A DNA stretch of 59,331 bases from Candidatus Kapaibacterium sp. (GTDB lineage Bacteria > Bacteroidota > Ignavibacteria > Kapaibacteriales > UBA961). Positions 4,981 to 15,742 of this stretch are shown here, one piece after another. Under the pieces are notes generated by a model that was not told the DNA's origin, did not search any database, and saw nothing but the letters and a program-made list of their open reading frames with translations. The stretch covers positions 1-59,331 of the forward strand of contig JAFLBY010000002.1 in NCBI GenBank assembly GCA_017302855.1, given 5' to 3'. Within the stretch, counting starts at the first letter, position 1. Each line of letters starts with the position of its first letter. The translations under genes were made by a program, and so were the position numbers.

Positions 4981-5001
4981 TTGCGCACTATGACAATATA
5001 A

Positions 5002-7998: not shown

Positions 7999-9195
7999 AT
8001 GTACAGAACAGGTTTTTATTTCCCGGAGATTTTTCGCGAGCGCTATGACGCTGTACGCGAGAAGTACGGCTCGCAAGTTGACTCATATCTCGCCTATACT
8101 TTGGTAGGTGACCCGCTTGCCGATGCTGTCGTCGAAGAATTTCATGCCTTAGGTCGTCATGACTTGATGCATGTTTTGGCACAAGCATTGGATGAAGGCA
8201 TTGAAACTATACCGGATGCACCGGAGTCACTTCAACGGCTTTTTGAAGAGAACATAGATCGTGTTCCGTATTGGGTAAATCGTGAGATGATGAAAACCGG
8301 CACAGAGGTTTTTTTAGATCATAGTGAAGTCTTTTTAGCATCGTTTACAGCGCGTGTACTGCCTTTGGGATTTATGACATCCATCAATAAGCCATTTGCA
8401 GCAACACATCGTTTGGAAGAAAGCGGTGTATCGCGTTTGCGTGCAAATAATCGTCACTTTGTTGAATCGTTTTTACCCGGTGGCATGGAACGTTTCGGCG
8501 ATGGCTTCAAACTGAGCGTTCGCATACGTATGATACATGCGCATCTGCGACAGTTATTTATCAAAAGAGGGGAATGGGACTCAAACCGTCTTGGTCATCC
8601 TTTACATTCAGCTCATACCACATTTGCTTATGTTGCATTTTCAGCTATGCTGTGGGAAACAGGTAAAATGTTAGGTATGATAGAAAGTGAAAAGCGCTCA
8701 GCCGGATTTATGAATGTATGGAAATATATGGGCTACTTGATGGGTATTCCTGCCGATTTGCTCGTTGATACCGTAGAAGAAGGCGTAAAGATTTTTAATA
8801 TGGGATGGGATCTTGATCACAATGTGGATGATGATGCTCGTCGCATTGTCCATACCCTTATTCATGCCGCTCCGGTAGTTGCTAATGTGACAGACCCCAA
8901 AGAGCGTGAAGATTTAACAGAGAAAATTTATAGTGTCTCGCGCGGATTACTTGGCGATGAGTTGGCAGACGCACTCCATTATCCACAACATTCAGGACAG
9001 TTGACAACCGCATTGCTACGAGCACAAGTAAAATGGATGCATTGGAAAGATATACTCATACCCGGAGCTAAAGAAAAACATCGGCTTGCAAGTATGGAAA
9101 AGCTTTTTGATGTTTCCTACTTCCAAAATATTAAAATTGATTATACTCCACCAAAAGATGTACGCTTTCACAAAGGCGATCATGAAGCAAATTAA
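7999..9195 (+). CDS. Hypothetical protein, possibly MpaB/DUF2236-family oxygenase-like
   Basis: Long clean ORF. Recognition is weak and rests on general similarity to DUF2236 proteins (RIRMIHAHLR segment). ATG 7999 is chosen over GTG 7951. Confidence 0.45.
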   Translation: MYRTGFYFPEIFRERYDAVREKYGSQVDSYLAYTLVGDPLADAVVEEFHALGRHDLMHVLAQALDEGIETIPDAPESLQRLFEENIDRVPYWVNREMMKTGTEVFLDHSEVFLASFTARVLPLGFMTSINKPFAATHRLEESGVSRLRANNRHFVESFLPGGMERFGDGFKLSVRIRMIHAHLRQLFIKRGEWDSNRLGHPLHSAHTTFAYVAFSAMLWETGKMLGMIESEKRSAGFMNVWKYMGYLMGIPADLLVDTVEEGVKIFNMGWDLDHNVDDDARRIVHTLIHAAPVVANVTDPKEREDLTEKIYSVSRGLLGDELADALHYPQHSGQLTTALLRAQVKWMHWKDILIPGAKEKHRLASMEKLFDVSYFQNIKIDYTPPKDVRFHKGDHEAN

Positions 9196-9536: not shown

Positions 9537-9581
9537 TGTTTTCACAACGAACTCGTTCCCTCAATCATTGCTTTTACCATA

Positions 9582-9615
9582 CGAATGTCCGCTTTTTTTC
9601 AAAAGCGGACATTCG
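9582..9615. terminator. Strong hairpin terminator after the STAS gene
   Basis: CGAATGTCCGCTTTT-TTTC-AAAAGCGGACATTCG forms a 15-bp stem. The T/A tracts are embedded in the stem, so it could act in both directions. Confidence 0.7.
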
Positions 9616-9858
9616 TGTTCATACACAACATTGTTTAGAAATCCCCCTATACTTTACCCGATGATTACAGCACTTGTACATACGTTCTAGATGTGTCAGG
9701 ATATAAAAACAAAAACAACGAAAACCACTTTATTTCCTGTATAGTATAAGAAATTCACATTTGTTTGTGTAGATAAACTTTTGTAGTTTGGGGGAAAGAC
9801 GGTTAAAAAGTATGCTTCTTAACAAAGAAACTTTTATTTTTGCAACAACCTTTATGAT

Positions 9859-10176
9859 ATGATAAAACAACTAATGTAAAGTTGAGTTTTTAGAAGAAGA
9901 TTCAGAGTTTCTTGAGAGTCTTGAAGAAAGAGTAAGAGATAATAGCATTTACAGCATTACAAAAGCAAGGTTTTCAAACAATAAAGAACTTTTCAAAAAA
10001 TTGACAGATGAAATTTGGGAGTTTAGAATACTGATTAATAAGACCTAGTTCGGAATTTTTGCTTTTTAATCAATCAGCGAAGATGAACACGGTTGTCATA
10101 TCTGATAAAGAAAACGGATAAAACTCCACTAAGTGACTTGGATAAAGTAAGGCGTTTGGAAAAAAAACTATTTTGA
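9859..10176 (+). pseudogene. Degraded HigB/Gp49-like (RelE superfamily) toxin gene
   Basis: Manual translation gives MIKQLM*, then in another frame VEFLEEDSEFLESLEERVRD...LTDEIWEFRILINKT*, then ..FGIFAF.., then LIKKTDKTPLSDLDKVRRLEKKLF*. All pieces fit the Gp49/HigB pattern (iwElR, yRifaF, KKt.ktP) but are split by stops and frameshifts. Confidence 0.6.
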
Positions 10177-10194
10177 ACGTATAGACAAGAAAAA

Positions 10195-10520
10195 ATGAGG
10201 AAGCAAGGATTAACAACTTATAGCATAGATGACATTGCCGACAAACACATCGGTAAACCTGGGACAGTAAAACGTGAATCTTTTGAGAATGAATTACGGC
10301 TTGGCTTACTTAGGGGGCAATCAGACAAGTACATTTAAAGCGTAACTTGACCTAAGAAGAGATTGGACGACTTGTAGGTGTTCAGAAAGTCCAAATTTCA
10401 AAACTTGAGAATAGCTTGACAGACGCAAGATTTGATACAATAATTAAGGTGTTTAAGGCACTGAATGCAAAGATACATTTCAATGTGGAGTTGCTTAATC
10501 AGTCAGTAAAACTCTCTTAA
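10195..10520 (+). pseudogene. Degraded XRE-family HTH antitoxin (HigA-like)
   Basis: MRKQGLTTYSIDDIADKHIGKPGTVKRESFENELRLGLL.. is interrupted. It resumes in another frame as ..EEIGRLVGVQKVQISKLENSLTDARFDTIIKVFKALNAKIHFNVELL, a typical HTH_XRE core. Confidence 0.6.
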
Positions 10521-10722
10521 AAGAAAAACTCTTTTCGTTAGGAACATATGCAATGCTTATAATGTAAGTATGTTAATAAAATGTCTTTTGAGCTTATAAC
10601 TAAGCAAATACAGCTTTCGTTACGCCTTACACTAAAATTGACAAGTGTGAGAAAATAAACTAGAAAAAAAATGAGTCAACAGAAGAGAGCATTAATACAC
10701 GTATTTTCTAACTTTGTAATTT

Positions 10723-12291
10723 ATGACAAACTATATAAATATCGAACCTTTCAACCAAGAACTGCCAAGCGAGTTTGCAGACAGATTAGGTATTTATTAC
10801 ACTCAACAAGTAACAACTAAACATAAAAAGGATAACGGACAGTTCTTTACACCAATAAAAATTGCCAGATTAATGGCTTCGTATTGCGACTTAAGAAAGA
10901 ATACAATCCGAGTTTTAGACCCAGGCTGTGGGACCGCTATTCTAACTTGTGCTTTAATAGAATATTTAATTGAGAAACAACGTGACATATACTTTGTTGA
11001 TTTAGTCGCCTATGAAACTGATCCAAACTTAATTTCATCGTCACAAAAGACGCTAGCATATTTAAAAGCATGGCTTTTAGAAAAGGGAATTAGATTTCAA
11101 TATTTAATTCACGTTCACGATTTTATTTTAGATAATTCAAATGCACTAAGAGAAGAGTACCAAGAAGAAAAGTTTGACTTAATAATTTCAAACCCACCCT
11201 ATTTTAAACTTGCAAAAGATGATAAAAAAACTATTGCAGCTAAAGAGTTAGTAAACGGACAACCCAATATCTACTCAATTTTTATGGGAATTTCTGCAAA
11301 ACTACTTTCCCAAAATGGTGAGTTAATTTTTATTACACCAAGAAGCTTTGCTTCAGGTAGCTATTTTAAAGTATTCAGAGAACTGTTTTTCAACACCGTT
11401 CAAATTGACAAAATACATTTGTTCAACTCACGTAAAGACACATTCAACCGTGACAACATTTTACAAGAAACTGTTGTAATTAAAGCAATCAGAGAAGAAA
11501 TCAATCCAAAAAAAAATGTGCGTGTTTCTTCAAGTGTAGGAATTAAAGACATTTTTGAACCTACGATAAAATATTTCATTTCTGCTGATCTCATTGACCT
11601 AAATTCAAAAGAGAAAATTTTGCATTTGCCGACAAACGATAAAGAAGAAACCATTTTAAATTTAGTTTCTACTTGGGAAAATGTGTTGAGAGATTTCAAT
11701 ATAAAAATTTCAACAGGTCCTGTGGTTGCATTTCGAGCTTTGGATTATATCCAAAAACATTACGAAAATGGTACGGTCTTTTTAGCTCCTTTGTTTTGGC
11801 TTCACAACGTAAGAAAAATGATTCTGGAGTGGCCAAATGAATTCAAAGAAAAAGGTCAATTCATTAGAATAGAAAGCGGTTCAAAATCTTTGGTGATTCC
11901 GAACAAGAACTACATTCTTTTAAGGCGATTTAGTAGCAAAGACGATAAGTGTAGACTAATTGCAGCTCCATACTTCTGCAACTATGTAAAAGCAGACTTT
12001 ATCGGTATTGAAAACAAAGTAAACTATATATACAGGAAAGACGGACATTTAGACCGAAACGAAGTAGTTGGGCTTTGTGCATTACTCAACAGCGAATTGT
12101 TTGACGCTTACTTTCAAATTTTCAACGGCAACGTAAATGTAAGTGCAACGGAACTCAGGGAAATGAGATTTCCAAGATTAGAATACATAAAAGAAATTGG
12201 AAATAAAATCATATTATCTAATAACTACGCAATGGATAATGTGAACAATATTGTAAATAATTTAATAGGGGTCAAACAAATTGTAAAGTAA
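10723..12291 (+). CDS. Gamma-class N6-adenine DNA methyltransferase (Eco57I/PstI-M-like)
   Basis: Motif order is FFTP (X), VLDPGCGTAIL (I), then IISNPPYF (IV), followed by a ~300-aa C-terminal target-recognition region. Confidence 0.85.
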   Translation: MTNYINIEPFNQELPSEFADRLGIYYTQQVTTKHKKDNGQFFTPIKIARLMASYCDLRKNTIRVLDPGCGTAILTCALIEYLIEKQRDIYFVDLVAYETDPNLISSSQKTLAYLKAWLLEKGIRFQYLIHVHDFILDNSNALREEYQEEKFDLIISNPPYFKLAKDDKKTIAAKELVNGQPNIYSIFMGISAKLLSQNGELIFITPRSFASGSYFKVFRELFFNTVQIDKIHLFNSRKDTFNRDNILQETVVIKAIREEINPKKNVRVSSSVGIKDIFEPTIKYFISADLIDLNSKEKILHLPTNDKEETILNLVSTWENVLRDFNIKISTGPVVAFRALDYIQKHYENGTVFLAPLFWLHNVRKMILEWPNEFKEKGQFIRIESGSKSLVIPNKNYILLRRFSSKDDKCRLIAAPYFCNYVKADFIGIENKVNYIYRKDGHLDRNEVVGLCALLNSELFDAYFQIFNGNVNVSATELREMRFPRLEYIKEIGNKIILSNNYAMDNVNNIVNNLIGVKQIVK

Positions 12292-12294
12292 ATT

Positions 12295-13428
12295 ATGAAT
12301 TTAGAAGAAAAAAATAAAGAGCTACAGATAGAAATTGAGAATGTCAGAAAAGAGATTAAAACTGATAACTTTAGCATGGCAATCCGTGAACTTGTTCAAG
12401 TTTACAGAGATGGTGACTTAGAACTTTCCCCAGCCTATCAAAGACTTTTTAGATGGTCTGATGAAACAAAAACAAAATTTATCGAGTCTATTTTAATGGG
12501 GATTCCGACACCACCTATATTTATTGCTCAGAAAAAGGGATCAAAATGGACTATTGTTGATGGATTACAAAGGGTATCAACAATATTGCAATTGATGAAA
12601 TTAATTGAAGTTAGAGACACCGAGGGAAACCTAAAGCCTCCGTTTAGATTTAAATCGGCTGAAAAGCTCCCTTCAATTGAGGACTTAGATTGGCTATCTC
12701 TTAACGAAGATGCTCAAAGAATAATTAAAATGACAAAAATTGACTTGAAAATAATCCTTATTGAAGACAACATTGAAGCTCAATATGAATTATTCACAAG
12801 ATTAAATACAGGTTCGGTTTCATTACAAGCACAAGAGATTAGAAATTGTTTAATAATAATGCTTGATGAGAATTTTTACAACAAAATCAATGACTTAAAA
12901 ACTATGCCTGAGTATAGAAACTGTATTGATTTAACAGAGAATAAAAATGAAATAGAATTTCCAATGGAACTAATACTTCGTTATTTTATTTTAAAACACA
13001 ATAAAATAAATTTTAGTAATTACAACTTATCAAGTGATTTACTTAGCTTATTTATAGATAAAGAAACTGCTAAAATAATTAAAGATAAAACTTTTGTGAT
13101 TGAAGATGAGATAAATGTTTTTAAACGAGTTTTTGTGTTGTTAGATGAAGTGTTGAACAAAAATACTTTTAGAAAATTCAATGCCGTTAAAGATGAATTC
13201 GAAGGTCCATTTTTACAAACAGCTTTTGAAGCAATTCTTCCCGGGTTAGCAAAAAACATTGATTACTATGAAGGTCAAGGTAAAGAAATTTTGAAACCAA
13301 AAATTATTCAAATGTATTTAGAAGAAGACTATATCAATGCTGCAAAAAGAGGAAACAAAGCATTGCCTAGAATACAAAGTATGATTTCATTTTCCAACCT
13401 ATATTTTAGCGTCAATGGAGATAGCTAA
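12295..13428 (+). CDS. DUF262 (ParB/GmrSD N-terminal-like) protein without a DUF1524 nuclease domain
   Basis: SPAYQRLFRWSDETKTKFIESILMGIPTPPIFI...WTIVDGLQRVST carries the DGQQR-type motif. The C-terminal half is helical with no His-Me/HNH motif. Confidence 0.8.
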   Translation: MNLEEKNKELQIEIENVRKEIKTDNFSMAIRELVQVYRDGDLELSPAYQRLFRWSDETKTKFIESILMGIPTPPIFIAQKKGSKWTIVDGLQRVSTILQLMKLIEVRDTEGNLKPPFRFKSAEKLPSIEDLDWLSLNEDAQRIIKMTKIDLKIILIEDNIEAQYELFTRLNTGSVSLQAQEIRNCLIIMLDENFYNKINDLKTMPEYRNCIDLTENKNEIEFPMELILRYFILKHNKINFSNYNLSSDLLSLFIDKETAKIIKDKTFVIEDEINVFKRVFVLLDEVLNKNTFRKFNAVKDEFEGPFLQTAFEAILPGLAKNIDYYEGQGKEILKPKIIQMYLEEDYINAAKRGNKALPRIQSMISFSNLYFSVNGDS

Positions 13429-14188
13429 ACTTGAAGATCTTCTATATGAGGATTGGACTTGGCGAAAGACTGAAATTTCAGAACTAATCATTTTAGCGGA
13501 GACAGAAAAAACAAATGTTCTATTAAAATCAGTCATTTTGCTTTTATATGCTCATTGGGAAGGTTACATAAAAAAATCAAGTAAAACTTATTTAAAATTT
13601 ATCTCCGACAACCAAATTGAAGCTTCTAAACTGACAGATAACTTTAAGTATATTGCTTTAAAAGGGTTGTCCAAGGAAGTATTTAATTCTAGAGATACTT
13701 TGACTACAAATAACGAGCTAAAATTTATTAATAAGTTTAATCAAATAAATGAGACGACGATTGACAGATTTATTAGAATCGATTTAGAGAACGAAAGAGA
13801 TAAATCGATTATTGACACACAAGACAACCTTACTCCTGCTGTTTTTAGGAAAATTCTTGATATAATTGGTTTGAAATATTTAAATGGATATGAGTCAAAA
13901 AAAACACATATTGAACATAATCTAGTAGATCACAGAAATTCTATAGGTCACGGTAACAAGCGACTATCAAGTAATGAAGATTTTCTTTTAGAAATAGCTT
14001 CATTAAAAGAACTTAGAGATATAATTTTTTTGATAATCGAAAATTTCAGAGACGATATCATTCAGTTTGCAAAAGAAGGTTATTACCTAAGAGATAATTT
14101 AGGGTTGATAGAGAATTATTGTACAAGTAAAGAAGATATAATTTCTAGAGAGTTAAACGCTATACAATCAAGATACAACAATGAATAA
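13415..14188 (+). CDS. HEPN-like nuclease (MAE_28990/RiboL-PSP-like family)
   Basis: LLYAHWEGYIKK lies near the N-terminus and HRNSIGHG supplies an Rx4H HEPN catalytic motif. It overlaps the DUF262 gene by 14 nt and the REase gene by 8 nt. Confidence 0.7.
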   Translation: MEIAKLEDLLYEDWTWRKTEISELIILAETEKTNVLLKSVILLLYAHWEGYIKKSSKTYLKFISDNQIEASKLTDNFKYIALKGLSKEVFNSRDTLTTNNELKFINKFNQINETTIDRFIRIDLENERDKSIIDTQDNLTPAVFRKILDIIGLKYLNGYESKKTHIEHNLVDHRNSIGHGNKRLSSNEDFLLEIASLKELRDIIFLIIENFRDDIIQFAKEGYYLRDNLGLIENYCTSKEDIISRELNAIQSRYNNE

Positions 14189-15116
14189 ACTAGAAGAAGC
14201 ACGAGAGATACTTAAAGCATTAGGACTTCCGCCAGCACAATACAATGAAATGGCGGCATTGACACTTTTAGCGGTCTGCAACATTAAGGAAAATGATAGT
14301 TGGTCAAATGCAACTCGTCAGAGTTTAGGAGTTACAAAAGGAATCATGACTTTTGTAAACGACAACTACGGAAAATTTTATGCACCAAATACTAGAGAAA
14401 CATTCAGAAGGCAAGTGCTTCACCAATTTGTTCAAGCACGAGTTGTTGACTACAACCCCGACAAACCTGATTTGCCAGTAAACAGCCCTAATGCTCATTA
14501 CGCTTTAACAAAGGAAGTTTTGGAAGTTGTAAAAACATACAAAACCAAAAATTGGAATAAGGCTTTGAAAAATTTCATTGACACAGTTGGCAAACTTTCA
14601 GAAGTATATTTGAAAGAAAGAGAACTAAATCAAATTCCAGTTACGCTTCAAAACGGAGAAACAATCAAACTCTCCGCAGGAAAACATAATGAAGTTCAAG
14701 CAGCAATAGTTGAACAGTTTGCCCCACGTTTTGCAAATGGTGGAACACTTCTATACTTAGGCGACACAGCAAAAAAAGACTTATTCGTTGACGGAAAGGG
14801 GCTACAAGATTTAGGGATTCCAATTGACCAACACAGCAAACTACCTGATGTTGTAATCTATGATAACAAACGAAAATGGTTGTTTTTAATTGAAGCCGTA
14901 ACTTCTCATGGGCCGGTTTCTCCGAAACGACTGTTAGAACTGGAAGACTTTTTGAAAAACTGTAAAGTCGGAAAAATATATGTGACGGCTTTCCCTGATA
15001 TGACAGAATTTAAAAAACATTCAAACAATATAGCTTGGGAGACAGAAGTTTGGTTGATGGAAGTTCCCGACCATATGATACATTTTAACGGAGACAGATT
15101 TATTGGACCAAGATAG
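14181..15116 (+). CDS. BsuBI/PstI-family type II restriction endonuclease
   Basis: The N-terminus EAREILKALGLPPAQYNEMAALTLLAV and the C-terminus PDVVIYDNKRKWLFLIEAVTSHGPVSPKR...VTAFPD...IAWETEVWLMEVPDHMIHFNGDRFIGP match my recollection of the BsuBI_PstI_RE family consensus. Confidence 0.75.
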   Translation: MNKLEEAREILKALGLPPAQYNEMAALTLLAVCNIKENDSWSNATRQSLGVTKGIMTFVNDNYGKFYAPNTRETFRRQVLHQFVQARVVDYNPDKPDLPVNSPNAHYALTKEVLEVVKTYKTKNWNKALKNFIDTVGKLSEVYLKERELNQIPVTLQNGETIKLSAGKHNEVQAAIVEQFAPRFANGGTLLYLGDTAKKDLFVDGKGLQDLGIPIDQHSKLPDVVIYDNKRKWLFLIEAVTSHGPVSPKRLLELEDFLKNCKVGKIYVTAFPDMTEFKKHSNNIAWETEVWLMEVPDHMIHFNGDRFIGPR

Positions 15117-15124
15117 CGCAATCT

Positions 15125-15742
15125 TTGGGTGGGCAAAAACGGAAATGTCTATTTGGGAAAATTGTCGAAACAGACCTACGTGTCTGCCCTGAAATGATTT
15201 TGAACGATGCCGGTAAAATGGTTGAAAAATGGTATTATGTATTGGAACAAAAATTCCCTGATATTAAAATAATGCCCAATCATTTCCATTGTATCATAGA
15301 GAATGTCGGGGCAATAGGGGCTGACCTGCGTGTCCGCCCCATTACCAATGATCCTGATAAACACATCAACAATCATCCTGATATATACATCAACAATCAT
15401 CCTGATATATACATCAACAATCATCCTGATAAACACATCAACAATCATCCTGATATATACATCAACAATGATTCTAATAAATACATCAACAATGATTCTA
15501 ATAAAACAGAGGGCGAACACATCGGTTCGCCCCTATATCGTGTCGTGCAATGGTTTAAAACAATGACAACCAATGAATATATACGTGGGGTGAAAAATTT
15601 GGGTTGGCAACCATTTGATGGCAAATTGTGGCAACGCAATTATTATGAACACATTATCCGCAATGAAAAATCCTATCATAACATTACAAATTACATAATC
15701 AATAACCCTGCTAAATGGGCAGAAGATACATTTTATGGCTAA
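15125..15742 (+). mobile_element. IS200/RAYT-like Y1 (HUH) transposase, apparently 5'-truncated
   Basis: HUH motif MPNHFHCII. The C-terminal segment SPLYRVVQWFKTMTTNEYIR...KLWQRNYYEHIIRNEKSY carries the catalytic Tyr. The usual N-terminal ~30 aa (..YDYS..YF.T.CT) are missing, and the ORF only opens at a TTG right after the REase stop. Confidence 0.65.
15341..15508 (+). repeat. In-frame 24-bp minisatellite, 7 units, inside the transposase gene
   Basis: ATCAACAATCATCCTGATATATAC and variants encode ITNDPDKH / INNHPDIY x2 / INNHPDKH / INNHPDIY / INNDSNKY / INNDSNKT. Confidence 0.95.

Follow-up and report, generated by a model that had tools for sequence, protein, structure and literature searches.

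The four-gene locus

We analysed a stretch of 59,331 nucleotides (nt), hereafter the window, from Candidatus Kapaibacterium sp. (assembly GCA_017302855.1, contig JAFLBY010000002.1, positions 1 to 59,331, forward strand), in which a gene for a DUF262 protein is followed directly by a gene for a separate HEPN protein. This pair is embedded between the methylase gene (M) and the endonuclease gene (R) of a PstI/BsuBI-like type II restriction-modification (R-M) operon.

All four genes lie on the + strand. M (10723..12291) comes first in the cassette and encodes an N6-adenine DNA methyltransferase of 522 amino acids (aa), of the Eco57I/N6_Mtase type and with an NPPY motif (Pfam PF07669, E = 1.9e-18, and PF02384, 7e-12; PADLOC MTase_II, 2.2e-114). 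After a 3-nt gap follows the gene for the DUF262 protein (12295..13428; 377 aa), with a ParB-like NTPase (nucleoside triphosphatase) domain at about aa 31-187 and a helical, ParBDB-type C-terminal domain at about aa 190-370. It overlaps by 14 nt with the gene for the HEPN protein (13415..14188; 257 aa), a predicted metal-independent ribonuclease (RNase) effector of the MAE_28990/RiboL-PSP family. The HEPN gene in turn overlaps by 8 nt with R (14181..15116), which encodes a type II restriction endonuclease of the BsuBI/PstI family (311 aa; PF06616, BsuBI_PstI_RE, 4.1e-62; PF17728, BsuBI_PstI_RE_N, 1.3e-53; PADLOC REase_II, 7.8e-114). Both endonuclease domains and a linked N6-adenine methylase are present, as in BsuBI/PstI type II R-M systems. 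No terminator-like sites were found on the + strand within the four-gene block. A sigma-70 promoter scan gave sites no commoner than in shuffled sequence, with a model that is ill-suited to Bacteroidota.

We delimited the cassette (10735..15116, + strand) from nucleotide homology and GC content. Blastn showed 77-82% nucleotide homology to contigs from Kapaibacteriota (L002) and Aureispira (L003), both beginning at 10735. The Aureispira homology stops at 15116, and the Kapaibacteriota contig ends inside the R gene. The GC content of the cassette is 28-36%, against about 40-50% across much of the window. Because the limits of this cross-phylum homology are those of the four genes, and because their GC content is low, the four genes appear to behave as one compact, horizontally moving cassette of 4.4 kb. 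Scans of the window for tRNA genes and Rfam families, as integration sites or RNA partners, returned nothing.

The DUF262 protein resembles ParB-type proteins and lacks a recognisable nuclease

The only Pfam match of the DUF262 protein is GmrSD_N/DUF262 (PF03235; E = 7.7e-23; aa 31-187); at E<=0.01 there is no match to GmrSD_C/DUF1524 (PF07510), a profile that did match the proteins of a positive-control locus (L131, described below). Two PADLOC models cover nearly the whole protein: NsnA (E = 5.2e-51; aa 10-356 against profile positions 32-364 of 385) and PD-T4-2_A (PDLC04027; E = 5.2e-30; aa 31-360 against positions 41-350 of 363). The motif DGLQR (12559..12573, + strand, from the translation) belongs to the NTPase site of DUF262 proteins, and is the counterpart of DGQQR in GmrSD, BrxU and HEC-06, a relative in which mutations of this motif abolish defence. 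Four blocks, Q49-R50..W54, D89-G90-x-Q92-R93, F167-x-R169-x-N171 and Q180-E181-x-R183, are invariant in 74/74 partner DUF262 proteins.

The C-terminal half (aa 190-377) has a single histidine (H236), which is not conserved, and there is no conserved histidine column in this half in either 28 or 74 homologues. In the AlphaFold2 model (predicted local distance difference test score, pLDDT, 84), the protein is helical from about residue 179 on, with one small hairpin. The best Foldseek matches of the full-length model in the PDB were the N-domain of pNOB8 ParB, BrxU, SspE, PadC, ParB and Noc, and none of the PDB matches was a nuclease fold. With no Pfam nuclease match, no conserved histidine and this set of ParB-N, BrxU, SspE and Noc folds for the full-length model, we rejected a cryptic nuclease in the C-terminal half. 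In NsnA-like proteins, the corresponding region is ParBDB, a DNA-binding domain homologous to the middle domain of SspE (SspE-M) (PMC12065111). As the NsnA and PD-T4-2_A models align over nearly their full length, and as this region of NsnA is defined as ParBDB, the helical half appears to be this known type of DNA-binding domain, with no nuclease hidden in it. Searches of both family profiles (DUF262 and HEPN) against PDB sequences gave no meaningful matches.

The HEPN protein retains a complete catalytic motif

The HEPN protein matches HEPN_MAE_28990 (PF18737; E = 2.2e-31; 110.2 bits, cut-off 26.8) and HEPN_RiboL-PSP (PF18735; E = 9.8e-24; 84.7 bits, cut-off 28.4). Its translation contains the Rx4H catalytic motif R174-N-S-I-G-H179 (13934..13951, + strand), in which the residue after the arginine is polar (N175), as expected for the HEPN superfamily. 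R174, H179 and G180 are invariant in 78/78 HEPN homologues, and N175 is found in 77/78; these homologues were selected on a separate motif (LYAHWEGY), so the count is an independent check of Rx4H. The segment HWEGYIK (13553..13573, + strand, from the translation) carries a second motif, Ex3K (E49...K53), and both residues are invariant in our HEPN alignment (A1). Such an Ex3[KR] motif has been described for HEPN proteins, and RNase L, PrrC and RloC require the arginine and histidine of Rx4-6H (PMC3710099). The AlphaFold2 model is all-helical (pLDDT 89). We predict that the protein is a metal-independent endoribonuclease that uses R174 and H179.

The family is large, with 2,039 clusters at 50% identity at E<=1e-3 and 1,248 at E<=1e-10, in both bacteria and archaea. 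At NCBI, the homologues are named 'MAE_28990/MAE_18760 family HEPN-like nuclease'. Among the top 150 HEPN representatives there were no fused DUF262-HEPN proteins; all were stand-alone proteins of 89-303 aa.

DUF262 and HEPN form a widespread two-gene unit

Scanning A1 against one genome per species gave 80 loci, from Bacteroidota, Cyanobacteria, Actinobacteria, Proteobacteria, other bacteria and Archaea. In 79 of these 80 genomes, a DUF262 open reading frame (ORF) of about 365-380 aa on the same strand ends within a few nucleotides of the HEPN start, most commonly with a 4-nt overlap. The same held in a plasmid collection, where the ten records with a HEPN match were also the top ten DUF262 matches (in nine cases over at least 80% of the query), and all ten had HEPN directly downstream of DUF262. 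The pairwise identities of the two proteins also run in parallel (rho 0.82, 14 loci). This degree of pairing lies far beyond chance, and the two proteins appear to evolve as a unit.

The surroundings of the pair vary. The 60 more distant loci have no conserved neighbour, and a 3.9-kb E. coli plasmid (L082) carries the pair and little else; another copy is found on a 5.7-kb Enterobacter plasmid. The IMG/VR viral contigs hold only nine loci, so the pair is typically not phage-borne.

One relative of the cassette, in Sediminibacterium salmoneum (L004), differs from the window in a localised way. Nucleotide homology is interrupted solely within the HEPN gene (window 13598-14177), and the identities are 78% for M, 70% for DUF262, 91% for R and 54% for HEPN. 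This points to an effector gene that has evolved fast or been replaced.

These results bear out several claims of a first-pass annotation of this DNA, made by reading the sequence alone. It had described a DUF262 ORF of 377 aa without a DUF1524/His-Me nuclease, and the ORF lies exactly where it was placed and has neither PF07510 nor a conserved C-terminal histidine. It had seen no H-N-H or His-Me motif in the helical half, and the AlphaFold2 and Foldseek results for the full-length model likewise show no nuclease fold. The overlapping downstream gene with its Rx4H HEPN domain is borne out by the ORFs, by Pfam and by the motif RNSIGH itself, which close homologues retain. The partnership of the two proteins, proposed from a single locus, extends across the genomes described above.

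The pair as a probable accessory insertion in an R-M operon

The closest relatives of the window HEPN protein have a more constant neighbourhood. Of the 20 closest HEPN loci (HEPN of 250-263 aa), 19 have an adjacent Eco57I-type methylase, and 15 of these 19 also have a BsuBI/PstI endonuclease. With D for DUF262 and H for HEPN, the genes occur as M-D-H-R (the window and L001-L005), as M-R-D-H (L006, L007, L012, L014, L015, L017 and L018), with a fused methylase-endonuclease as MR-D-H (L008, L013, L016 and L020), and as M-D-H without R (L009, L010/L011 and L029).

Two of the loci without R are peculiar. In Flavobacterium johnsoniae CI04 (L010:1-5503 and L011), a single Eco57I-type methylase gene lies between two DUF262-HEPN pairs, and an endonuclease gene is lacking. 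The first of these pairs is divergent, sits on the opposite strand and has a RiboL-PSP-type HEPN; the other is of the window type and lies downstream of the methylase. In L029, two copies (264-352 and 8498-8586) of an 89-nt remnant of the 3' end of an R gene bracket a locus with a split methylase and a DUF262-HEPN pair, and no intact R gene. Each remnant adjoins a 295-aa ORF on the minus strand; these ORFs may be insertion sequence copies.

We also approached the neighbourhood from the endonuclease, using the 80 closest metagenomic R homologues. M was adjacent to R or fused with it in 69 of these 80, and in none of them did the pair lie between M and R. The three closest relatives of R (88-92% identity; L098-L100) are plain M-R operons with an 8-nt overlap and no pair. 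Among the 55 homologues with at least 1.3 kb of downstream sequence, a DUF262 gene follows R in six, leaving about 89% without one. Across loci, the identities of DUF262 and R correlate with rho 0.46, so the modules are only partly congruent; in L014, R is 75% identical to that of the window and DUF262 55%. From these gene orders, we conclude that the pair was inserted as an accessory into an M-R operon that is ordinary in other respects. The window-type HEPN clade nevertheless appears unusually faithful to one R-M family, which leaves room for a functional link.

The six DUF262 genes found after R come with different partners. One is followed by HEPN (L144). In three (L111:5949-7969, L142:3368-5415 and L168:5953-8010), a gene for a DUF262 protein of 347-360 aa without DUF1524 is followed by a gene for a complete RelA_SpoT-domain protein of 323-326 aa (PF04607, 1e-7 to 4e-9), and in L161 by an ORF truncated by the contig end that starts like these RelA_SpoT proteins. 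L131 has two canonical DUF262-DUF1524 proteins after R. By its domains, the arrangement in L111, L142 and L168 is a pairing of DUF262 with a toxSAS-like protein, of which we found no discussion in the literature searched. DUF262-based modules with different effectors thus appear to share a niche at the same R-M family, as a natural effector-swap series.

A possible trace of the insertion lies at the start of the DUF262 gene. The sequence at 12295-12312 (ATGAATTTAGAAGAA, encoding MNLEE) resembles the start of the R gene at 14181-14201 (ATGAATAAACTAGAAGAA, encoding MNKLEE), and is also similar to the M/R junction of relatives without the pair (L099/L100, around position 5001). This likeness could be an insertion scar at the M/R junction, or a coincidence.

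Relation to known defence systems

The architecture itself has been described before. PD-T4-2 from E. coli ECOR65, listed as 'DUF262, HEPN', protects against T4 (Vassallo et al., 2022, PMC9519451), and its validation used both a plasmid and a deletion in native ECOR65. HHpred placed PD-T4-2A in PF03235, and PD-T4-2B in PF18735 (97.8%) and PF18737 (96.9%) (PMC9519451). RiboL-PSP-HEPN proteins have been listed as 'operon with ParB' (Anantharaman et al., 2013, PMC3710099). COG1479/DUF262 was reported as often fused to HNH, PD-(D/E)xK or HEPN domains, and a system for programmed cell death with a link to DNA modification was suggested (Makarova et al., 2013). PD-T4-2, Menshen and Dazbog appear in reviews as DUF262 systems that lack DUF1524.

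PD-T4-2 is a close match. Like the window locus, it is a two-gene operon, in which the first gene encodes a DUF262 protein (about 350-375 aa) that lacks DUF1524 and the second a small stand-alone RiboL-PSP/MAE_28990 HEPN protein, and the order of adjacent, same-strand A and B genes is kept in the window. The two differ in the HEPN protein: that of the window has 257 aa, against 168 positions in the PD-T4-2_B model, which does not detect it. It also has an N-terminal helix of the LYAHWEGY type, for which a PD-T4-2_B-like E. coli protein shows no evident counterpart. As cloned, PD-T4-2 functions as a unit of two genes, whereas the window pair sits inside an R-M operon.

As controls, we used pairs from an E. 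coli IncF plasmid (L081) and from the 3.9-kb plasmid (L082), each with DUF262 and HEPN. The L082 proteins match PD-T4-2_B (4.4e-4) and PD-T4-2_A (4.3e-50), with NsnA again scoring higher for DUF262. The L082 DUF262 protein aligns with the window family in hhalign at 99.6% probability over aa 29-317. The HEPN proteins are related to that of the window only weakly, and both control HEPN proteins fall in PF18737 and/or PF18735. A hidden Markov model (HMM) of the window HEPN family finds the L081 HEPN at 26.7 bits, over its C-terminal 140 aa. From these comparisons, we conclude that the window locus has the same architecture and Pfam families as PD-T4-2; its effector belongs to a distinct HEPN subfamily, because the PD-T4-2_B model misses it and the family HMM matches the PD-T4-2_B-like L082 HEPN near the catalytic motif only. 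We would therefore call the locus PD-T4-2-like, or equivalently a MAE_28990 neighbourhood, and not PD-T4-2 in the strict sense. The published account of the MAE_28990 family (PMC3710099; PF18737) is purely comparative-genomic, and the M-[DUF262-HEPN]-R embedding and its restriction to a clade are established here.

Other systems share single components with the locus. The DUF262 protein is a full-length homologue of NsnA of Menshen (NsnABC), with the same ParB-DUF262 and ParBDB domains, and the Menshen effector is predicted to be mostly an RNase (PMC12065111). The NsnB ABC-ATPase and the NsnC inPIN-effector are both absent, so the locus is not Menshen; the downstream genes are HEPN and the BsuBI/PstI endonuclease, the operon has no ATPase gene, and a transducer is thus missing. 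GmrSD, BrxU and SspE have the same DUF262 NTPase domain with QR..W and DG(x)QR, and BrxU and SspE are among the closest solved folds. They carry a fused DUF1524 His-Me nuclease, however, while the effector in the window is a separate HEPN protein predicted to target RNA, not DNA; lacking DUF1524, the locus is not GmrSD. PrrC of EcoprrI, the model second-line defence, is likewise an NTPase-governed HEPN RNase encoded within an R-M operon, but it has a fused ABC-type NTPase and a type I (Ic) R-M host, in contrast to the separate ParB-like NTPase and type II R-M system here.

The first-pass annotation had treated the arrangement as unusual and read it as a swap of effector from DNase to RNase. 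Its description of the architecture stands; its view of the arrangement as unusual does not, given PD-T4-2 and the fusions noted in 2013, and it overlooked the R-M operon around the pair. The DUF262-HEPN architecture is already known and the window locus adds no new principle. The effector swap is the accepted, still hypothetical, reading of that architecture. The HEPN, RelA_SpoT and fused DUF1524 partners found after the same R-M family strengthen the general view that a DUF262 platform can carry interchangeable effectors. DUF262-HEPN pairs are widespread, with one validated anti-T4 member, and such pairs are better labelled PD-T4-2-like than 'GmrSD-like restriction enzyme'. Current PADLOC models overlook the window HEPN subfamily.

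A proposed DNA-sensing switch with an RNase effector

We consider it likely that the pair is a two-gene anti-phage module of the PD-T4-2 type, which travels as a passenger within the PstI/BsuBI-like type II R-M operon. The DUF262 protein, with its ParB-like NTP-binding and -hydrolysing domain and its ParBDB DNA-binding domain, would act as a DNA-sensing switch. On engaging phage DNA, or a DNA state induced by the phage, it would undergo an NTP-dependent conformational change that releases or activates its HEPN partner. The activated HEPN protein would then cut RNA (tRNA, rRNA or mRNA), stopping translation and blocking phage growth. The R-M system would provide first-line DNA restriction and the pair a second, RNA-directed layer, with all four genes presumably co-transcribed and moving jointly as the 4.4-kb cassette. 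We read the two proteins as a sensor-switch and a latent RNase because of three precedents: in GmrSD, BrxU and SspE, the NTPase activity of DUF262 controls the fused nuclease once DNA is recognised; NsnA has been put forward as a sensor (PMC12065111); and the chemistry of the HEPN arginine and histidine is established. The sensor role of DUF262, the RNase activity of HEPN, the logic of activation and the outcome, whether growth arrest or abortive infection, are all predictions by analogy with these systems.

Several observations weigh against this explanation. Foldseek matches of the HEPN model to the HEPN toxins 8yuf, 8xdj and 4nqf are weak and non-significant (E about 2.6-3.4), and its other matches are non-significant helical bundles. 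The PADLOC PD-T4-2_B model misses the window HEPN and five homologues even at E<=10, and the window HEPN-family HMM matches the L082 HEPN solely around RNxxaHG (15.9 bits). The C-terminal domain of the DUF262 protein was fold-searched solely within the full-length model, which leaves a cryptic catalytic site formally possible. No mechanism for PD-T4-2 or any DUF262-HEPN pair was found in the literature searched, and the route from sensor to RNase is one that we infer for the window locus and its close homologues. Finally, the presence of the pair beside the same R-M family in 19/20 loci of the closest clade hints at something beyond passive hitch-hiking.

This last point is the starting point for an unlikely, though coherent, alternative, in which all four genes would belong to a single integrated system, not to two that are stacked. 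Here the pair would be held inactive by the methylase, the endonuclease or both, and the RNase would fire when a phage anti-restriction factor disables the R-M system, much as in PrrC. The closest clade keeps this association through four gene arrangements, and the incongruent identities of its modules (DUF262 against R, and L014 in particular) would mean that the linkage was re-created, or maintained through recombination. Translational coupling of the genes fits as well, as does the precedent of PrrC-EcoprrI, and such a guard role has been proposed generically for R-M-embedded HEPN genes (PMC3710099). Yet none of the 60 more distant pairs lies beside an R-M system, the pair is found on small plasmids that lack R-M, and PD-T4-2 protects when cloned alone. 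Conversely, most related R-M systems with enough downstream sequence have no DUF262 after R, and M-D-H loci without an R gene exist (L009-L011 and L029). We disfavour an obligatory dependence on R-M because the distant pairs are autonomous and PD-T4-2 works on its own.

The same small plasmids could be seen as a sign of an addiction module of the toxin-antitoxin (TA) kind, in which DUF262 neutralises the HEPN toxin and the pair stabilises a mobile R-M cassette or plasmid rather than sensing phage. The layout is TA-like, in that the partner lies upstream, the two genes overlap and the RNase domain is of a toxin type, and a TA reading has been proposed for the related MAE_18760 HEPN with ParA/Soj (PMC3710099). 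We nevertheless regard this as quite improbable. A DUF262 protein of 377 aa with invariant NTPase motifs and a DNA-binding domain exceeds the needs of a simple antitoxin, and because these features are invariant we disfavour a mere antitoxin role. DUF262 is also more conserved than HEPN (as in S. salmoneum), as expected where a sensor is conserved and its effector evolves fast, and PD-T4-2, of homologous architecture, was isolated and validated as phage defence. A further reading moves the activity to the DUF262 protein itself, which would recognise the mark set by its methylase neighbour or, like GmrSD, a foreign modification, and act on DNA as a ParB-type nuclease, with HEPN as an auxiliary. 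Loci with methylase, DUF262 and HEPN and no endonuclease, including the double-pair locus of F. johnsoniae, fit this idea. A like idea has been raised for methylase-linked Menshen (PMC12065111), these proteins carry the Aravind-school annotation 'ParB nuclease', and PD-T4-2 came from a selection on T4, whose DNA is modified. Most pairs, though, have no linked methylase, and the DUF262 protein has neither a nuclease fold nor a conserved histidine or acidic nuclease motif. As the catalytic residues of HEPN are invariant, which points to HEPN as the effector, we disfavour DUF262 as the sole effector and judge this reading very unlikely.

For the closest clade, the anti-phage module might still have acquired a closer tie to its host operon. 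It is conceivable, if on balance doubtful, that the pair is functionally wired to the PstI-like R-M system there, as a PrrC-style guard or as a second reader of the methylase mark, with DUF262/ParBDB as a general plug-in sensor. If such wiring exists, the locus would be a four-component type II R-M system with a built-in, RNA-directed fail-safe. If the plug-in sensor exists, DUF262/ParBDB would drive exchangeable effectors at one R-M locus, whether an RNase (HEPN), a nucleotide pyrophosphokinase of the RelA/SpoT kind or a His-Me DNase in fused form. The same R-M backbone with the pair, without it, and with HEPN, RelA/SpoT or DUF1524 effectors forms a natural comparison set. It bears on the ParB-like protein as a generic DNA-sensing switch, on the substrate of HEPN, and on R-M-embedded RNases as PrrC-like fail-safes.

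Sequence composition and flanks of the cassette

We considered avoidance of CTGCAG as a sign of PstI specificity and long residence. CTGCAG occurs twice in the window against 10.7 expected, and ranks only 15th of the 64 palindromic hexamers for avoidance; with many other palindromes equally under-represented, we rejected it as uninformative. Strong avoidance of palindromic hexamers is seen across the whole window, with seven (including AGGCCT, GTATAC and GACGTC) at zero occurrences against 4-9 expected.

Upstream of the cassette, between a STAS gene and the methylase (9537-10722), about 1.2 kb contain no ORF of at least 50 aa. The short ORF fragments found at 10093-10520 may be what is left of a small helix-turn-helix-type gene broken up by frameshifts, and a perfect 16-nt inverted repeat lies at 9581-9616. 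Directly after the cassette is an ORF (15125-15742) with similarity to IS200/Y1 transposases that is limited to its C-terminus (PF01797, 5.5e-5, aa 137-194). Within this ORF, 6.7 tandem copies of a 24-nt repeat (15346-15505) run in frame and encode NNHPDIYI-like units; the ORF may be a degenerate or repeat-expanded RAYT/IS200-like gene.

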